The notes under the pieces: model-generated
What the model saw: the letters and a program-made list of their open reading frames with translations, nothing else
The model's database searches: none
Told to the model about the DNA's origin: nothing
In this document: piece by piece, positions 50,862 to 61,686 of the stretch
Layout: every line of letters begins with the position of its first letter
Position numbering within the stretch: the stretch's first letter is position 1
Translations under genes and position numbers: made by a program
From: Candidatus Sericytochromatia bacterium
GTDB taxonomy: Bacteria > Cyanobacteriota > Sericytochromatia > S15B-MN24 > UBA4093
Assembly (NCBI GenBank): GCA_036676985.1
Contig: JAKFBU010000001.1
Location: 64,001 to 128,000, forward strand
Length of the DNA: 64,000 nucleotides
Direction: 5' to 3'

Positions 50862-52541
50862 CTAGCTGGGCGAGAGGTCCTCCGCCTCGGTGACATGCAC
50901 CGCGGGGAGCTCCTGCAGCCGTCCGCCCCGGGCCGCGTCGAGCTCCCAGAGGCGCTTGTTCTGGACCACCGACTCGACCCGCTCGATGCCGTCCTTGTTG
51001 AGGACCACCCGCACCCGGTGGTAGACGGGCTCCTCGAGGCGGCCGTCGCCGCCCACCTTGGTCACGCGGTAGATCACGTTGACGTGGTAGACCTTGGGCG
51101 CGAGCATCACCTCGAAGCGGCCCGTGCGGTCGTTGAAGCGCGACACCTTCACGTGCGGGTCCGAGAGGCGCTTGAGGAGGTTGGCCACCGAGTAGCGCAC
51201 GATGTGCTTCACGTGCATGCGCCGCACGTGCGTGGCGTGAATGGTCTTGGCCTCGAGCTTCATGGAATGGCGGTAGGAGAGGACCTCCTCCTCGCGCTCC
51301 TCGTCCAGGTCGATGGCGTGGCTGAACTCCCGGAGGCGCCTGATGTCCTCGGGTAGCTTGCGCTTGGCCTCGTAGCGGACCGTCTGGCGGCAGGTGCCGA
51401 TGGCGCGCTGGGACATGGGGTCGATGACCGTCAGCCGCTGATCGGGCAGGAGGCGCTGCACCTGGCTGGCCAGGTACTCCTTGAAGAAGTCCTTGATGCG
51501 GTCCTTGAGGATGTAGACCAGCACGATGGTGAGGATCAGCATCGCCGTGGAGACACCGTGCAGGTGCACGTTGACGTTGCGATCGCCGAGCGTGCTCCAG
51601 AAGGCCGCGAGAGCCGCACCGCAGGCCGCCACGATGCTGCGGAAGCGATGCACCTCGCGCACGGTGCGGATGTTGAGGTAGAGCACCTGCGCCAGGTACT
51701 TCTTGAGAGCACCCGTGCGATAGGTGTAGAGCTCCAGGCCCTCGGGCGAGTCGCTCGACAGCTGGATGAAGCCCTCCTCGCGACGGTACTCGGCCTCCTT
51801 GGCGCCGAGCCAGGTCAACCGCTCGTCGAAGCGGCTCAAGAGGGCATGCTCGACCGCGAGGAAGGCCTCGTGGATCTTGGCCAGGTTCTCGTCGAAGCGG
51901 TAGGTCAGGTACTCGTCCACGAGCCGCAAGGCGTCGAGCATCTTGCGAGAGAGGCTCGCCCGATTGTCGGAGTAGGAGCGGCGCAGGGCGCGGTACTTGA
52001 GGAGGACCGCATGCTCGCCCTCCAGGTGATCGACGATGTGGTCCATCAGCTCGGCCGCGGCCGTCGGGTTGTGGCGCCGGCGCGCGATTTCTTTCCCGAC
52101 CTCCCGGGCCTGCTTGCGCAGGTCGCGCCAGTTGGCGATGAGGATGGTGCCCAGGAGCTTGGCCTCGTTGATCGTCGAGCGCTCCAGCTTCTGGTCGATG
52201 CTGGGCTGCTCCACCAGCTGCTTGAGGTTGAAGCTGAGGATGTTGAGGGGGCTCAGCGGACTGAGCGGATCCGCGAGAGTCTGGCTGCTGAGGGTGGGCG
52301 TCTTGAAGCGCAGGTAGCTCAGGACGTCCTTGAAGAAGTCGTCCTTGCCGTAGCTGAGGGCCGACACGCCGAGGTTGGTGGGCAGGAAGTAGAAGGCGTC
52401 CACCCGGAAGTAGGCACGCCCGTCGGAGCCGGTCGCGCTCGGGCTCACGTCGTAGTTGAACGCGATCTCGAAGTGCTGCCGATCATGCAGATCGATCTGG
52501 CTGTCGAACAAGCGATTCGACCGAAGCGCCCCTTCTCCCAT
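50862..52541 (-). CDS. Hypothetical protein with two TM helices
   Basis: Long ORF, typical codon usage, YILKDRIK after a TM pair; start approximate. Confidence 0.75.
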   Translation of the reverse strand: MGEGALRSNRLFDSQIDLHDRQHFEIAFNYDVSPSATGSDGRAYFRVDAFYFLPTNLGVSALSYGKDDFFKDVLSYLRFKTPTLSSQTLADPLSPLSPLNILSFNLKQLVEQPSIDQKLERSTINEAKLLGTILIANWRDLRKQAREVGKEIARRRHNPTAAAELMDHIVDHLEGEHAVLLKYRALRRSYSDNRASLSRKMLDALRLVDEYLTYRFDENLAKIHEAFLAVEHALLSRFDERLTWLGAKEAEYRREEGFIQLSSDSPEGLELYTYRTGALKKYLAQVLYLNIRTVREVHRFRSIVAACGAALAAFWSTLGDRNVNVHLHGVSTAMLILTIVLVYILKDRIKDFFKEYLASQVQRLLPDQRLTVIDPMSQRAIGTCRQTVRYEAKRKLPEDIRRLREFSHAIDLDEEREEEVLSYRHSMKLEAKTIHATHVRRMHVKHIVRYSVANLLKRLSDPHVKVSRFNDRTGRFEVMLAPKVYHVNVIYRVTKVGGDGRLEEPVYHRVRVVLNKDGIERVESVVQNKRLWELDAARGGRLQELPAVHVTEAEDLSPS

Positions 52542-52725
52542 CCCCCTCCGCTCCCTTCGCGGCATAGACCCGCCTTTGGGTCTCTTTCATATACCCAATT
52601 CTCTCGCCATGCCGCTCTTGGGCGCTTGGGCGAATGGGCGAAGGGTTTCGTCGGATCCGGTGAGCGGAGCAAGCAAGCCACGGTGATACGATTCCCTGGT
52701 CGCTCGGACCCTGCCGGAGGTGCCC

Positions 52726-55689: not shown

Positions 55690-55704
55690 ACGCTAACTAG
55701 TCCA

Positions 55705-55746
55705 GCACGAAGCGGGCAGTTCGGGTGCGAACTGCCCGCTTCGTGC
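55705..55746. terminator. Perfect 19-bp stem-loop separating the phosphoesterase from the precursor gene
   Basis: GCACGAAGCGGGCAGTTCG-GGTG-CGAACTGCCCGCTTCGTGC. Confidence 0.7.
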
Positions 55747-55854
55747 GGTCGATCCAGTAGAAAACGAAGATTTAATGGAGGTTTATCGAAGTTTTGGAGA
55801 CATTTGGCGCATATGAATACTAGCAAGTAAAAACGCTGCCGTAAGGAGTCTGTC

Positions 55855-56529
55855 ATGCGCATCAACCCGAATGATCCCGGCTTGCGTCTGCCGAAGCCTG
55901 TCGCTCCGTCGCAGGCGCCGCAGGCGCCAGCCGCCTCGGAGTCCGGCGCCGCCAAGCCCGTGCTCGATGCCGCCACGATTTCCCCGCAGGCCAAGCCCTC
56001 GAAGTTGGGCCTCCCGGAAGCGGAGATTCGCCTCCCCGACCCCATCCACCCGCCGCACAAGATGCGGGCGGATGATCCGACGCCGGGTCCGAGGGGCCCC
56101 ATCAGGCCGCCCATCATCAAGCGGTGCTGGGATGATCCGACGCCCGGCCCCAAGGGTCCGATCAAGCTGCCGCCCGTCATCGTCAAGCGGCGCGCCGACG
56201 ATCCGATTCCGGGTCCCCGGGGCCCCATCAAGATCAGGATGGACGACCCGACTCCGGGGCCCATCAAGCCGCCCATCTACAAGTTCCGGGCCGACGATCC
56301 CCTCCCTTCGGGCCCCATCAAGGAGCCGCCCATCTTCAAGAAGCGCGCGGACGATCCGATCCCCTCGGGCCCAATCAAGGAGCCTCCGATCTACAAGTTC
56401 CGGGCCGACGATCCGATCCCTTCGGGCCCCAAGGACCCCATCGGTAAGCCGCCCATCTTCAAGAAGCGCGCGGACGATCCGGCTCCCGGTCCCATCAAGA
56501 TCAAGATGGATGACCCGAAGCCCTTGTAG
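55855..56529 (+). CDS. Putative multi-core RiPP (graspetide) precursor
   Basis: AAGGAG RBS; ~60-aa non-repetitive leader then nine K-x-x-x-D-D-P units in Pro/Gly linkers; adjacent ATP-grasp gene. Confidence 0.8.
   Translation: MRINPNDPGLRLPKPVAPSQAPQAPAASESGAAKPVLDAATISPQAKPSKLGLPEAEIRLPDPIHPPHKMRADDPTPGPRGPIRPPIIKRCWDDPTPGPKGPIKLPPVIVKRRADDPIPGPRGPIKIRMDDPTPGPIKPPIYKFRADDPLPSGPIKEPPIFKKRADDPIPSGPIKEPPIYKFRADDPIPSGPKDPIGKPPIFKKRADDPAPGPIKIKMDDPKPL
56035..56520 (+). repeat. Imperfect coding tandem repeats of the precursor cores
   Basis: Recurrent GACGATCCG..GGCCCCATCAAG..CCGCCCATC(T)..AAG units; cores 5/7 and 6/8 are near-identical. Confidence 0.9.
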
Positions 56530-56538
56530 CCGCAAGCC

Positions 56539-57477
56539 GTGGCGACCGTGAAGCGGGTTGGCCTCGTCTACGGCGAGGAGGATCGGCACATCCGGGCCCT
56601 GGCGGCCGAACTCGAACGCCAGGGCCACGAAGCGGTAGACATTGACGCCTCCGAGCTCTCGGCGGCGTCACTGTTTTCGCTGCGTCAGGATGCCGCCTTC
56701 CTCGGGAACCGTCCCATGGCTGAGCTTTCGGCCGTCTTTCTGCGCAGCATCCTGAGCGCCTTGCCGGGCGTGTACCTCGCAGAAGGCGAATACCGCGTCT
56801 ATTCGGACTGGTACGAGAGCTACACCCTGGCAGCCGAGCGGCAGGCCCTCGTCATGGGCTGGCTGATGAACCTCCAGGAGTACGTCCCGTTCGTCAACCC
56901 GCTGCGGCTGGCGACCATGTCGCCCCTGAAGCCGGTGCAGATGGGCCAGCTCACGCGGGCCGGCATCCGCGTGCCCCGGACCCTGGTGTCGAACGACCGG
57001 CAGGAGATCGAGGCCTTCCGGCGCTCCGTGGGCGATACCATTTTCAAACCCCTGATGGGGGGGCGCTACTGCGATCGCCTGACGGACGAGGTCCTGCGCG
57101 AGGTCGACTGGGGGACCTTTCCCGCCGTGTTCCAGGAGTACGTGCCCGGTGAGAACGTCCGCATCTCGGCGTTGCCGGGCGAAATCCTCTCGGCCTGCGC
57201 GGTCTCGGGCGACGAGATCGACTTTCGGGCCGCCGAGGAGTTCATCGCGGGCCGCGAGCCCATGCGCGAGATCGACCTGCCCGACGACGCGCGCCGGATG
57301 TGCTGGAAGGCGCTCGAGGCCTGCGGCTTCTTGTTCTCGGGCATCGACCTCAAGGGTACGGTCGAGGACGGCTTCGTCCTGCTCGAATGCAACCAGCGTC
57401 CCGCCTGGCTCCACATCGAGGACGCGACAGGAGCACCGATCACGCGCGGCCTGGCCGCCTTCTTGGCGCGACTCTAG
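56539..57477 (+). CDS. RimK/MvdC-like ATP-grasp ligase (putative graspetide synthetase)
   Basis: KPVQ..AGIRVPRTLVSND, IFKPLMGG, PAVFQEYVPG, IDFR, FSGIDL, LLECNQRPAWLHIE. Confidence 0.88.
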   Translation: MATVKRVGLVYGEEDRHIRALAAELERQGHEAVDIDASELSAASLFSLRQDAAFLGNRPMAELSAVFLRSILSALPGVYLAEGEYRVYSDWYESYTLAAERQALVMGWLMNLQEYVPFVNPLRLATMSPLKPVQMGQLTRAGIRVPRTLVSNDRQEIEAFRRSVGDTIFKPLMGGRYCDRLTDEVLREVDWGTFPAVFQEYVPGENVRISALPGEILSACAVSGDEIDFRAAEEFIAGREPMREIDLPDDARRMCWKALEACGFLFSGIDLKGTVEDGFVLLECNQRPAWLHIEDATGAPITRGLAAFLARL

Positions 57478-57587
57478 GCTCCTGTTTCGGTAACTCGCCA
57501 AGTCCCAGGTGACGTCGAGGCAACTGGCGGGTGACGGCCCGTGCCAGGTGGGCTAGTATGGTCGCATCACGTTACAGGAGGGCGTCA

Positions 57588-58946
57588 ATGCTTCAAGCCA
57601 CCACGACGATTCCGACCGCTTCCGGGATGGGGGCGATCGCACCGGACCAGATCGAGACCTGGAAAGCCGATTTTGCCACCAATCCGACCCATCGCCTGGC
57701 CATGAATGCCTGTTCACAGGGCAACCTCGACGAGATTGCGCTCAACCGCCAGATCTTGGCCGGCATCGACTGGAACTTCTCCCATGAGGTGGCGAGCGGC
57801 GCCATCACGAACCAGAAGCGGGCAGGCTTTTGCTGGCTGTTCGCCAGCCTCAACTGGCTGCGCATCGACGTCATCTCGACGCTCAAGGTCGAGAACTTCG
57901 AGTTCTCCTACAACTACCTGATCTTCTGGGATCGCCTCGAGAAGGCCAACCGCTTCCTCACGGCCATGGTCGCGAACCGGGATCGGTCGTCGGACGACCG
58001 CCTGGTGGACTTCCTCCTGCGCGACCCGAGTCCGGACGGCGGTGAGTGGCACATGGTGGCCAACCTGATCCGCAAGTACGGCCTGGTCCCCAAGTCTGCC
58101 ATGGCCGACACCTTCAACCTGAGCGACTCGACGTATCTCAACAAGGTGCTCAACTACAAGCTGCGCGAGGCCACGGCCATCATCTTCGGGCTGCAGCGCA
58201 AGGGCGCCTCCGAGGCGGAGGTCGAGGGAGCCAAGCGCAAGGCGTTGTCGGAGATCTACCGGATTCTCTGCATCCTCATGGGGGAGCCGCCCCAGCGCTT
58301 CGACTTCTCGTACCGGGATAAGGACGAGAACTACCACGCGCACCGCGACCTGACGCCGCAGACGTTCTACGAGCAGTTCGTGGGCAAGGACCTGAACGAC
58401 TACGTCTGGGTGATGAGCTCGCCGCTCGAGAGCACGCCTTACCACCAGACCTTCTACCTGGAGCAGTTCAACAACGTGGTGGAGGGCAATCCCGGCGTCT
58501 TCCTGAACGTGCCCATGGAGACCCTCAAGGGTCTGGCCGTCAGCGCCCTGAAGGACAAGCAGGCGCTGCTCTTCGGCTGCGACGTGCTGCAGGCGTCCCA
58601 CCGGAAGATCGGCGTCATGGACCCGAGCATCCTCGATTACGAGCTGGTCTTCAACACCCCGTTCAAGATGGACCGGGCCCAGCGGATGCAGTTCCTCGAG
58701 GCGCGCCTGACGCACAACATGGTCATCCGGGGCGTCGATCTGGCGGACGATCAGCCGCTCAAGTGGAAGATCGAGAACAGCTGGGGAGACGAGCACGGTC
58801 AGAAGGGCTTCTTCATGATGACCGACGCCTGGTTCGACGAGTACGTCTACGCCCTGGTCGTGAACCGGCGCTACCTGGACGGCGAGCTGGCGACCCAGCT
58901 CGATCAGGAGCCGACCGCGCTCCCGCCCTGGCATCCGCTGGCCTGA
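57588..58946 (+). CDS. pepC: Aminopeptidase C / bleomycin hydrolase (C1B)
   Basis: ITNQKRAGFCWLFA (catalytic Cys), LTHNM (His), WKIENSWG (Asn); AGGAGG RBS. Confidence 0.93.
   Translation: MLQATTTIPTASGMGAIAPDQIETWKADFATNPTHRLAMNACSQGNLDEIALNRQILAGIDWNFSHEVASGAITNQKRAGFCWLFASLNWLRIDVISTLKVENFEFSYNYLIFWDRLEKANRFLTAMVANRDRSSDDRLVDFLLRDPSPDGGEWHMVANLIRKYGLVPKSAMADTFNLSDSTYLNKVLNYKLREATAIIFGLQRKGASEAEVEGAKRKALSEIYRILCILMGEPPQRFDFSYRDKDENYHAHRDLTPQTFYEQFVGKDLNDYVWVMSSPLESTPYHQTFYLEQFNNVVEGNPGVFLNVPMETLKGLAVSALKDKQALLFGCDVLQASHRKIGVMDPSILDYELVFNTPFKMDRAQRMQFLEARLTHNMVIRGVDLADDQPLKWKIENSWGDEHGQKGFFMMTDAWFDEYVYALVVNRRYLDGELATQLDQEPTALPPWHPLA
58874..58946 (+). repeat. 73-bp direct repeat, copy 1 (pepC 3' end)
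   Basis: Matches 63907-63979 at 69/73 positions by manual comparison. Confidence 0.92.
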
Positions 58947-59040: not shown

Positions 59041-61308
59041 CTAATGCGGTAGCAGAGAGGTCACGAGATCCGCCAGGCGATCGCCGAAGCCGGAGGTGAG
59101 GCTCTCGGGGGGGGCTTGGCGCATGAGATGGAGCTTGCCGGTCCTCGCGAGCACCTCGTAATGCGTATGGCCCGTGGCATCCCGGTGGAAGCGCAGGCTG
59201 ACTCGGGCCTCTCCGACCTGGAGATTCTCGAGCGTCAGCTCGGGCAACCACTCGGGCAGATCGGGATCGACCACGAGCGTGTGGAGCGGAGCGAGGGGAA
59301 AGAGGCCCGTCAAAGCCTGGATCAAGAGGACGATCGCGCTCGATGACCAGCTCTGCGGGGCGTTGGACTGGGGGTAAATGCCGGGGTGCGGGTGCTCGCG
59401 GCTCCGCTGGTAGCCTCCGATGGCCTCGGGCAGGCGGTACTGATCGAAGATCTCGGTGGCGTCCAGGATCCCCCGCGCCAGGTCATGGAGCAGAGAGTTG
59501 AGTCCGTAACGCTTGAATCCGAGGGCGATGGAGGCGTTCTCCGACGGCCAGACGGATCCCAGGTGATAGGCGAACGGGTTGAAGGCCGGATGCTCGCTAG
59601 AGAGCGTGCGGATGCCCCAGCCGCTGAACATGTCCGGCGCCATCAGGCGGCCGGCCACGGCGGCCGCCTTGTCACGGTCCACGATGCCGCAGGCCAAGCA
59701 ATGTCCGGGGTTCGAGGCGATGTTCCGGACGGGCCGCTTGTCCGGGTCCAGCGCCTGGGCGAAGGTCTTTTCATCCGGCAGCCAGAACGCCTGATTGAAG
59801 CGGCGCTTCAGGTCCTGCGCCTGCGCCAGCAGCTCCCGTCCGCGCCCGTAGTCGCCCAGGAACAGGAAGACCAGTCCCATCAGCTGCTTGGCGGCGAAGT
59901 AGTAGCCCTGGACCTCGACGACCGCGATCGGGTTGGGCATCATCCGCCCGTCCTCATAGAGCAGGGCCTCCGGCGAATCCATCCACCCCTGGTTCTTGCC
60001 CCGCTTGTCGGCCTGGTGGGTCTCGTACTCGTAGAACCCGTCGCCGTCGATGTCGGCATCGCGGTCGATCCACTCGAGAACCGCCAAGAGGTTGGGCATC
60101 AGGTGCTGGATGAAGGCCCTATCGCCGGTCTGAACGAAGTAGGAGGCCGCGGAGATCAGGTACATCCCCGGGCCGGCATAATCGCCGTAGTAGCGGAGGA
60201 AGGGGTTGGCTCCCAGGAGCGCCAGCGGGCTCATTTTCGCCTGCTGGATGGTCCGGCCGGGCTGCTCGTCATGGGCGGGGTCGTAACGGGTGCCCAGGTA
60301 CCGCCCGAGCAGCTGGAGGGTGCCCTTCAACAAGAGGGGACTGGCGATGCTCGCCTGCCACCCGGTGGTCAGCGGGTCGCGCGCATACAGCTCCTGGTAG
60401 AGGGGGATCCCGGCGGCCGGGGTGTAGACCTCGTCTCCCTCGCCCTCATGGAGGGGCAGAGAGCCCAGATCGTAGAGCGAGCGGTCCCATGCCGCCTGGA
60501 CCTGGTGATTCGGCGTCTTGAGCGTCGCACACTGCTCGGACCAGGTCTCCCGCACCCGATCCAGGCGCGTGGAGCGCGAGTGAAAGGCCTCACAACCGTA
60601 GACGGGCTCGATGCGCTCGCCGAGAAAGAGCGGAATCACATCGAGGCACAGTCGGTGTCGCTGACGTGGCGCGAGGCGGACCCGATACACGACTTTCCCC
60701 GCGTCGAACCGGGGGCCGTCCTCATGGCGAGCAAACCGCAGGACGGTGCCATGCGGGAGCTGCGGATGCTGGTAGGTGAAGGTGAGCTCGCACCCGTCGG
60801 CCGCCTCGACCCACCGGGTGCTCACCTCCGCGTTCTGGAGGCGCAGCCCCCGGCCCTCGATGATCTCCTCCACGTCCGCGTAGTCCGCCCCGACCTCGAA
60901 GGCGAGCTCGACCTCGGTTTCGCGCAGGCCATGGTTGGTGACGAGCAGATCCTGGTGCATGCCGCCGCCCACGAAGCGGTTCACCTGGACGAGGATGGCC
61001 TTCTTCGCGATCTCGCCGCCGTCGCTCTCCGGATCGTCCGGCTCGGCGCCCGCCATGCGGCCAGCCGGCGTGGGGGCGGCGTAATGGGCGATCATCGAGT
61101 AGGAGTCGACCGGGTTGGCCGACACGAAGGTGGGCCGTTCGCCGTTGACGGTGAGCACCAGGCGGCAGAGAAAGCGCGTCTGACGAAAATAGAAGCCGTC
61201 GTGACCTCCATCGATCTGGCCATGGACGCTGGTCGCCACCACCGAGAAACCCGACGAGGCATACAGGCTCTCGGGAAACATCTGGAACCGGTTGAGCGCG
61301 ATACCCAT
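59041..61308 (-). CDS. Amylo-alpha-1,6-glucosidase / glycogen debranching family protein
   Basis: ELYARDPL, DEQPGRTI, NQGWMDS, YHLGSVWP, RLPE, PQSWSS; start taken at MGIALNRF. Confidence 0.88.
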   Translation of the reverse strand: MGIALNRFQMFPESLYASSGFSVVATSVHGQIDGGHDGFYFRQTRFLCRLVLTVNGERPTFVSANPVDSYSMIAHYAAPTPAGRMAGAEPDDPESDGGEIAKKAILVQVNRFVGGGMHQDLLVTNHGLRETEVELAFEVGADYADVEEIIEGRGLRLQNAEVSTRWVEAADGCELTFTYQHPQLPHGTVLRFARHEDGPRFDAGKVVYRVRLAPRQRHRLCLDVIPLFLGERIEPVYGCEAFHSRSTRLDRVRETWSEQCATLKTPNHQVQAAWDRSLYDLGSLPLHEGEGDEVYTPAAGIPLYQELYARDPLTTGWQASIASPLLLKGTLQLLGRYLGTRYDPAHDEQPGRTIQQAKMSPLALLGANPFLRYYGDYAGPGMYLISAASYFVQTGDRAFIQHLMPNLLAVLEWIDRDADIDGDGFYEYETHQADKRGKNQGWMDSPEALLYEDGRMMPNPIAVVEVQGYYFAAKQLMGLVFLFLGDYGRGRELLAQAQDLKRRFNQAFWLPDEKTFAQALDPDKRPVRNIASNPGHCLACGIVDRDKAAAVAGRLMAPDMFSGWGIRTLSSEHPAFNPFAYHLGSVWPSENASIALGFKRYGLNSLLHDLARGILDATEIFDQYRLPEAIGGYQRSREHPHPGIYPQSNAPQSWSSSAIVLLIQALTGLFPLAPLHTLVVDPDLPEWLPELTLENLQVGEARVSLRFHRDATGHTHYEVLARTGKLHLMRQAPPESLTSGFGDRLADLVTSLLPH

Positions 61309-61557
61309 CTCATCGACCTTTCGGCCCGGCGATCGCCAGGCGGCAACCACACCCATGGGGACCGTCTCCAAGCCGCCCATCCGGTCCACGGGGGGGCGGG
61401 GCGACAAGAACGCGCTGTCGTGGACCAAAGGACGAACCGATCCACGACGCGATGAAGGGCGCGAGGGTGCTGCAACTTGCCGGCGGGCGGCATGGCTCAG
61501 GGGCGGAACAGATGGGGGCAACAAATGGCCACCGCGATGATAGTCCCCCCATGGCCA

Positions 61558-61583
61558 CTTTTGCAATCTTTTTATGGCAAAAG
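61558..61583. promoter_or_regulatory. Palindromic operator-like site, copy A
   Basis: CTTTTGCAATCTTTTTATGGCAAAAG, AT-rich imperfect inverted repeat. Confidence 0.6.
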
Positions 61584-61686
61584 GTTCGAGGGCTTGCCCG
61601 CGCGAGCGGGTGGCGGCCCAACGCGGCTCGACGCGCCCCCCACTCGGCATCCGACCAGGAAGGCATCGTCACGCCCGCTTTTGAAG

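Follow-up and report, generated by a model that had tools for sequence, protein, structure and literature searches.

A putative corallotide-type graspetide cassette in a Sericytochromatia genome

What cross-link, if any, would be carried by a proline-rich repeat protein whose gene lies directly ahead of a gene for an ATP-grasp enzyme? This question is raised by a gene pair in a Candidatus Sericytochromatia genome (assembly GCA_036676985.1), within positions 64,001 to 128,000 of contig JAKFBU010000001.1; this stretch of 64,000 nucleotides (nt) is here called the window, and its genome is G000. The original prediction, made from the letters of the window, saw in the pair a new graspetide system, that is, a ribosomally synthesized and posttranslationally modified peptide (RiPP) cross-linked by a dedicated ATP-grasp ligase. 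Our analysis indicates that the locus is probably a graspetide cassette of two, possibly three, genes and that it is of the type described for corallotide, from which its chemistry can be predicted.

The precursor open reading frame (ORF) encodes 224 residues, of which 57 (25%) are Pro. After a leader of 68 residues that is free of cores, nine cores follow in the order KMRADDP, KRCWDDP, KRRADDP, KIRMDDP, KFRADDP, KKRADDP, KFRADDP, KKRADDP, and KIKMDDP, starting at residues 69, 89, 111, 126, 143, 162, 181, 203, and 215. They conform to the pattern K-x-[R/C/K]-x-D-D-P, with K1, D5, D6, and P7 present in 9/9 cores, R3 in 7/9, and A4 in 6/9, so the earlier description of a core-free leader and of nine cores in which only the Lys and the DDP are invariant was accurate. 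In most repeats, P-I-x or V-I-x stands ahead of the core and x-P-x-G-P-I behind it, and Tandem Repeats Finder reported periods of 57, 66, and 114 nt at the precursor gene. The leader contains 15 Pro residues, its longest Pro-free stretch is 9 residues, and it starts without a hydrophobic segment resembling a signal peptide.

The precursor ORF is a genuine coding frame and not a chance frame in GC-rich DNA (the GC content of the window is 0.64 to 0.72). The GC content at third codon positions (GC3) is 0.858 in the precursor frame versus 0.64 to 0.74 in three overlapping long frames, and it is 0.89 to 0.97 in the neighboring genes. The locus is also present, with a divergence of a few percent, in contigs of four other soil or groundwater sequencing runs from three studies. 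Among the strain differences listed, 10 of 14 in the precursor ORF and 12 of 18 in the ligase gene are synonymous, and this variation shows that the reading frame is under selection. The nonsynonymous precursor differences listed (A24S, A27P, H68Q, and L150R) affect no core K, R, D, D, or P. Taken together, GC3 and synonymous variation rule out reading the repeat ORF as a mere shadow of the minus-strand ORFs that overlap it. The frame is further supported by the AAGGAG ahead of its ATG and by the 19-bp hairpin behind the upstream gene (Table 1). When genomes of the window's phylum were searched with a DNA pattern encoding RADDP-gap-RADDP, the pattern was matched in 1 of 401, namely, in G000 itself, and the reversed control pattern was matched in none.

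Judging from family models, structural matches, and aligned catalytic residues, the enzyme encoded immediately downstream is a graspetide synthetase and not a RimK-type enzyme. It carries the segments IDFR, LLECNQRPAWLHIE, and GAPIT, which had been noted before, at residues 227, 281, and 298, respectively. Its top NCBIfam match is TIGR04187, "ATP-grasp ribosomal peptide maturase" (E = 2.5e-23, residues 22 to 309), followed in order by MptN, MvdC (1.6e-13), RimK (4.9e-11), LysX, MvdD (1.7e-7), and GshB; G000 contains one TIGR04187-like gene. The closest solved structure is PsnB, the plesiocin macrocyclase (PDB 7drm, E = 2e-33, ligase residues 10 to 294), followed by an MvdD-like protein and 5ig9. 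According to the available part of the PsnB report, Arg213 escorts the ring-forming carboxylate to ATP and, with Arg72 and a D(F/W)R loop, is conserved in graspetide synthetases (bioRxiv 10.1101/2021.03.09.434688). PsnB Arg72, Arg213, and DFR 233-235 align with R69, R208, and D228-F229-R230 of the window ligase, all of which are invariant in its seven closest homologues (7/7). Across 47 wider homologues, R208 is invariant (47/47), D228 and R230 show a conservation of at least 90%, and each of the ATP-grasp positions K170, Q199, D270, E283, and N285 either reaches that level or never varies. A complex prediction for the ligase (47-row alignment) with precursor residues 1 to 110 gave a score of 0.00 and was counted neither way.

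The chemistry of such a core has been described for corallotide, the product of graspetide group 15, which is encoded by the cor cluster of Corallococcus exercitus (Carter et al., ACS Chem Biol, March 2026, PMC13097080). According to the accessible part of that report, from which all statements on corallotide here are taken, the cluster comprises the precursor CorA (~22 kDa, with five "KxxxD" repeats), the TIGR04187 synthetase CorB, the PF13640 oxygenase CorC, and the beta-lactamase CorD (PF00144). CorB forms a Lys9-Asp13 isopeptide (i+4) in the tryptic fragment NPDDGVIVKIVADDPLR, as established by nuclear Overhauser effect spectroscopy (NOESY) nuclear magnetic resonance (NMR), and K-to-A or D-to-A substitution abolishes it; the link lies in the core stretch VIVKIVADDP, one ring is formed per repeat, and the second Asp is left free. 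CorC 5-hydroxylates the cross-linked Lys and also activates CorB, which is inactive in vitro without CorC unless present in 10-fold excess. The CorA leader is a helical domain of 86 residues, and the core has a collagen-like minimum in circular dichroism and aggregates. The same text describes group 15 as confined to Corallococcus, with the oxygenase always co-occurring. It distinguishes 43 groups, of which 34 and 35 have long repeat precursors and 27, 28, and 35 consist of synthetase and precursor only.

Contrary to the original prediction, the core does match a known motif, since K-x-x-A-D-D-P is the one that is modified in corallotide (PMC13097080). The third window core, read as VIVKRRADDP, shares 8 of 10 residues with VIVKIVADDP. 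A literature search for the letters RADDP gave nothing relevant among the papers listed; the corallotide motif reads KIVADDP and lies beyond that query. Both precursors are large tandem-repeat proteins (24 kDa in the window) in which K-x-x-A-D-D-P follows [VP]-I-x, both core regions are Pro-rich and collagen-like without being Gly-X-Y, and in both systems a gene for a TIGR04187-kind synthetase comes directly after the precursor gene. In each repeat, a single Lys serves as donor and a single Asp at i+4 as acceptor, as we predict for the window, and by this analogy of cores the most likely product is one Lys(i)-Asp(i+4) lactam per repeat. A loss of up to 18 waters, which had also been envisaged, is unlikely given that corallotide forms one ring per repeat.

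The two systems differ in several respects. CorA has five repeats, whereas the window precursor has nine, and position 3 of the core is Val in corallotide and Arg in the window. The leader of CorA is alpha-helical, whereas reasoning from sequence indicates that the window leader cannot be a helical domain because of its Pro content (22%) and its lack of any Pro-free stretch of more than 9 residues. The window genome, in contrast to the cor cluster, has yielded no oxygenase partner: G000, which is 100% complete by markers, gave 0 matches in a search with a CorC-like protein and 0 in a search with PF13640, a model that was positive in 2 of 14 control genomes. Since no PF13640 oxygenase was found in the genome, no 5-hydroxylation of Lys is expected. 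A beta-lactamase of the CorD family PF00144 was not found among the seven ORFs scanned between positions 50862 and 61650, to which that search was limited. The window also differs in having a C1B aminopeptidase gene downstream and in belonging to another host phylum.

The same core was found elsewhere, namely, in the Myxococcota. A protein search with the precursor returned a single protein, P0160, from an Archangiaceae metagenome-assembled genome (MAG); it contains six N-K-[VI]-R-A-D-D-P cores and aligns over ~75% of the window precursor. In a genome search with the window precursor, the aligned residues were 110 to 212 and 54 to 188. At the P0160 locus (L033, G061:C8), an ATP-grasp ligase gene lies 12 nt downstream; its product matches TIGR04187 (E = 9e-24) and is 27% identical to the window ligase, and a gene for a PF13640 2-oxoglutarate (2OG)-Fe(II) oxygenase follows. 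The RADDP-gap-RADDP DNA pattern was matched in 6 of 401 genomes of the phylum to which this MAG belongs; the matches in G496 and G662 were rejected as chance occurrences in Arg/Ala-rich shadow frames. A K-[IV]-R-A-D-[DE]-P precursor, a ligase, and a PF13640 oxygenase occur in a row at L033, L059 (G780:C9), L060 (G598:C36), and L061 (G521:C104). Corallotide-type cassettes are thus present in at least four Myxococcota genomes, one of them labeled Archangiaceae, whereas the corallotide report describes its group as confined to Corallococcus (PMC13097080). A wider pattern, applied to 201 genomes of the MAG's family, added G833 (L073, G833:C60) as a pattern match only.

Among the 42 Myxococcota cores collected, position 6 is E in three and L in one, while D5, which the search pattern required, is constant within the arrays read. 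The linkers are alike, reading D-D-P-I-P-S-G-P-I in the window and D-D-P-V-P-S-S-G-P-I in G061; reading the leaders revealed no motif common to the window and Myxococcota precursors. No beta-lactamase was seen among the scanned ORFs flanking the Myxococcota cassettes.

Several features of individual Myxococcota loci were also observed. In G521, the ligase and the 2OG oxygenase form one ORF of 556 codons (L061:2853-4520, minus strand; RimK-like ATP-grasp plus PF13640), a fusion that fits the experimentally reported CorB-CorC complex. The G521 precursor has two cores only and a long C-terminal part, and an M17 aminopeptidase is encoded just upstream. The Archangiaceae MAG contains a second precursor (L039:6611-7613, minus strand; G061:C38) with ten K-[IV]-R-A-D-D-P cores and an apparent frameshift, and no ligase gene lies within 5 kb. 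By eye, this precursor is flanked by a gene for a sigma factor of the extracytoplasmic function (ECF) type and by a kinase-like ORF with an N terminus resembling an anti-sigma zinc finger. Pfam assignments for the flanks of the G598 cassette (L060) gave sigma-70 region 4 on one side and zf-HC2, Pkinase, and TPR on the other. These sigma and anti-sigma-kinase flanks hint at a regulatory link.

The shared core is not matched by a shared ligase clade. A FastTree phylogeny was built from 93 ligases. In it, the clade that contains the window ligase (support, 100) pairs as sister (85) with that of L002, a locus in G018, whereas the four Myxococcota ligases form their own clade (99) inside another group (96), and an IQ-TREE analysis of 42 rows gave the same placement. 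A tree uniting the window and Myxococcota clades was rejected by the approximately unbiased (AU) test (log likelihood lower by 54.95, p-AU 0.008), for a grouping picked after the tree was seen and with CorB itself absent from the trees. The window ligase lies on the graspetide-synthetase side of the trees, apart from RimK-like rows, and TIGR04187 and PsnB are its best-scoring matches, so the separation from RimK, LysX, and GshB on which the original prediction depended was borne out.

Close relatives of the window ligase are rare. Five proteins at 48 to 78% identity (P0002 to P0006) were found among 5.8 billion, the next representative in a protein library clustered at 50% is 36% identical, and a ligase search of genome contigs returned no relative. 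Among 61 related genomes, 14 (including G000) have a homologue at E ≤ 1e-5; none of the nine genomes of the window's own family does (0/9). In genomes of the same order and class, ligases at 27 to 40% identity adjoin multicore repeat ORFs wherever the flanks could be read, and the expectation that homologue neighborhoods would hold repeat ORFs was borne out both here and, with the same core, in the four Myxococcota genomes. The nearest ligase with a known neighbor, that of L002 (40% identity), stands beside a precursor with six T-[LK]-R-[YW]-P-S-D-D cores. TTxAxGEEG repeat ORFs lie beside the ligases of L003, L004, and L008, ORFs of the same type lie beside those of the metagenome loci L009, L010, and L012, and T-x-R-x-P-E-G-G repeats are found at L005 to L007 on the strand opposite to the ligase.

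The L002 precursor (L002:503-1129, plus strand; G018:C401) presents a microviridin-like motif in tandem-repeat format, and a separate tandem DNA repeat lies between its gene and that of the ligase. At L005, L006, and L007 (G012, G024, and G020), the ligase gene and the repeat ORF, with units reading T-x-R-x-P-E-G-G-Q-P, converge. The ligase frame at these loci continues further upstream, through conserved residues that end in ...DLFVGLGNFDF[YF]TPGAA. This upstream part might represent a leader-like segment that is fused to the enzyme.

That the window pair is of the graspetide type and that the ligase macrocyclizes each core, as originally proposed, is most likely by homology. In the pathway that we propose, in which the chemistry of each step, which Asp reacts, what the peptidase does, and expression itself are inferred, the ribosome would make a basic, Pro-rich precursor of 24 kDa, composed of the 68-residue leader and nine K-x-R-x-D-D-P cores. 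The ligase would bind this precursor and, at the expense of ATP, phosphorylate a core's first Asp on its side-chain carboxylate, with R208 positioning the carboxylate and the D228-F229-R230 loop contacting the nucleotide. The epsilon-amine of the Lys four residues upstream would then attack the acyl phosphate to give a small Lys(i)-Asp(i+4) isopeptide ring, and the reaction could occur up to nine times, for a total loss of ~162 Da. Since the genome has no oxygenase of the CorC family, the ligase would have to work without such a partner, and the cross-linked Lys would not be hydroxylated afterwards, unlike in corallotide. The downstream C1B aminopeptidase may trim the leader, and the product would be a stapled polypeptide of polyproline- or collagen-like character.

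The invariance of D6 in all nine window cores leaves room for another ring pattern, in which the Lys is joined to the second Asp (i+5) or in which each repeat holds two rings, the second Asp being linked to the Lys of a G-P-I-K linker. Lys or Arg does follow G-P-I in most linkers, and the window ligase and the corallotide-type ligases fall in separate clades. We nevertheless consider such patterns unlikely, as the second Asp stays free in corallotide (PMC13097080) and as position 6 varies among the Myxococcota cores, whereas D5, fixed by the search pattern, never fails within arrays. Nor is the linker Lys a general second donor, because it is the core Lys itself in two short window repeats and is Arg in two linkers. 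It is highly doubtful that the genes are not a RiPP pair at all, with the repeat protein being an ordinary structural or disordered protein and the enzyme acting elsewhere, e.g., in RimK-like amino acid addition. The sole Pfam match above its cutoff is the glutathione-synthetase ATP-grasp domain PF02955 (25.6 versus 23 bits), with PF02655 (ATP-grasp_3) and PF08443 (RimK) just below theirs; the seven ORFs scanned include no evident exporter or dedicated leader peptidase; and 224 residues is large for a RiPP precursor. However, RiPP-maturase models and PsnB score better than RimK, LysX, and GshB by many orders of magnitude, the enzyme retains residues that are specific to graspetide synthetases, the pair of genes, 9 nt apart in the window, recurs with the same core in distant bacteria, and CorA is an equally large characterized substrate (PMC13097080).

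The dependence of CorB on CorC in vitro (PMC13097080), the absence of a PF13640 protein from G000, and the fusion of ligase and oxygenase in G521 would all suit a decaying or silent remnant, in which the ligase is inactive without an oxygenase of the CorC kind and the precursor stays unmodified. We regard this as quite improbable, since both ORFs are intact, the catalytic residues are kept, the strain variants listed are mostly synonymous in both genes, and the ligase clade is separate from the partner-dependent one.

Several points weigh against a corallotide-type cassette in the window. CorB needs CorC for full activity in vitro, and the window is without such a partner. The TIGR04187 match (GRASP_SAV_5884 subfamily) scores 82.8 bits, far under the curated cutoff of 350; the scanned ligases of corallotide-type and plesiocin-like loci, at 84 to 108 bits, are also far under it. 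Because the window ligase is 27 to 30% identical to the ligases of the four corallotide-type loci (pairwise E values of 1e-22 to 4e-32) and is not their sister, the transfer of the i-to-i+4 linkage rests on the precursor and not on enzyme orthology. The ligase of L002 pairs with Thr cores, and the amide preference of the window ligase is assumed. A precursor-fragment search gave none at E ≤ 1 among 621 candidates, and the precursors beside P0002 to P0006 were not seen, so the label "K-x-R-x-DDP" for these five is an assumption. The sequencing-run search listed no RNA run with the locus.

If the corallotide-type assignment is correct, the core chemistry is already known, and what is new is the context: a cassette that is free of an oxygenase and has another ligase clade, another leader type, and another phylum. 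Novelty is judged here against corallotide-type loci, and the window ligase clade may already be one of the 43 groups of PMC13097080. Since the linkers are also alike, we infer common descent of the precursor module, on which ligases of two clades would act. A further reading, which we hold tentatively and at less than even confidence, is that the window encodes a minimal, partner-independent isopeptide stapler. A clade whose nearest kin form Thr esters (on microviridin-like T-x-R-x-P-S-D-D repeats) would have switched to Lys. It would then have come to act on the corallotide core, or have acquired the repeat module by transfer, in either case separately from the CorB/CorC lineage. The enzyme would place as many as nine Lys(i)-Asp(i+4) lactams on a polymer rich in Pro, in the absence of an oxygenase and with the aminopeptidase as the sole accessory. 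In the bolder, testable version of the stapler reading, a second ligase clade has captured the precursor module; this version is considered because the linkers D-D-P-[IV]-P-S-G-P-I resemble the Myxococcota ones.

If active, the window ligase would make the K-x-x-x-D-D-P staple as a stand-alone enzyme of another clade, in another phylum, and without hydroxylation, whereas corallotide was reported as restricted to Corallococcus, always accompanied by a 2OG oxygenase, and made by a ligase dependent on it. The locus would then serve as a natural test of which unit is mobile as graspetides evolve, the core motif or the ligase. Lactams between Lys and Asp at i and i+4 are made synthetically by chemists to constrain peptides, and an active window ligase would be a simpler enzyme for installing them.

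The plesiocin system (group 2, with PsnB) likewise has a multicore precursor with Pro-rich linkers and a cassette of precursor and ligase only; its cores, however, are of the TTxxxxEE type and carry two Thr-Glu esters in a hairpin, whereas the window core has one Lys and an Asp-Asp pair, which is why an amide is expected. In addition, Arg181 of PsnB, its group 2a leader-binding residue, aligns with an Asp in the window ligase. Microviridin-type cores (TxKxPSDx[DE][DE]; MdnB/MdnC and MvdC/MvdD) resemble the L002 repeats T-x-R-[YW]-P-S-D-D, and the window K-x-R-x-D-D reads as a version of that motif in which Lys replaces Thr and P-S is missing. Microviridins differ in having a tricyclic cage made by two ligases, versus one small ring per core and one ligase as predicted for the window. 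The available part of a report on the myxomiditide cluster describes MyxF, an ATP-grasp ligase that forms small side-chain lactams on repeated K-x-x-E motifs (JACS Au 2026, PMC12848669). MyxF, likened to the window ligase by description only, differs in that its ring runs from i to i+3 onto Glu and supplements a microviridin core that four ligases make in cooperation (PMC12848669).

The cassette and its surroundings are listed in Table 1.

Table 1. Features of the putative cassette and of the neighboring DNA, in window coordinates
Feature	Position	Strand	Evidence or remark
567-aa protein without Pfam family, adjoins FtsH-like gene	50862-52565	-	Pfam scan
Short FtsH-like protein (494 aa) with AAA and M41 domains and a single N-terminal hydrophobic segment	52720-54204	+	Pfam
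19-bp GC-rich hairpin, directly 3' of upstream metallophosphoesterase stop	55704-55746	+	Read and folded
Shine-Dalgarno-like AAGGAG, 6 nt before precursor ATG	55843-55848	+	Sequence read
Precursor ORF, 224 aa	55855-56529	+	ORF list/translation
Leader, precursor residues 1-68	55855-56058	+	No core; 22% Pro
Core region, precursor residues 69-224 and stop	56059-56529	+	Nine [PV]-I-x-K-x-R-x-D-D-P-x-P-x-G-P-I repeats, periods of 12-22 residues
ATP-grasp graspetide synthetase (predicted), 312 aa, GTG start 9 nt after precursor stop	56539-57477	+	Domain, structure, and alignment searches
Peptidase C1B (aminopeptidase C/bleomycin-hydrolase type), 471 aa, 53 nt after ligase	57531-58946	+	PF03051, E = 8.4e-154
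Glycogen-debranching-like glycosidase, adjoins peptidase	59041-61650	-	Paralogues in G000 and in family members

The hairpin upstream of the precursor gene folds at -43.9 kcal/mol (65-nt segment, 55696-55760), and an AT-richer stretch follows it. The terminator consensus scan did not call it because no T-run comes after it. It probably terminates the upstream transcript, so that the cassette would have its own start. The scan detected no terminator-like site between the ligase and the C1B peptidase genes, and the peptidase, like the ligase, was not found in any of the nine genomes of the same family. Our guess is that it is a candidate trimming peptidase and that it may belong to the cassette.

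Upstream lie genes for a lipoprotein-like metallophosphoesterase and the short FtsH-like protease, with no sign that either belongs to the cassette; the FtsH-like gene and that of the 567-residue protein form a pair ~1.6 kb upstream of it. A synteny test for the cassette as an insertion drew no borders, given the many paralogues of the flanking glycosidase and the 610 contigs into which the same-genus genome is split. One glycosidase paralogue, at G000:C75, is 59% identical, and several at 31 to 37% identity occur in every family member searched.

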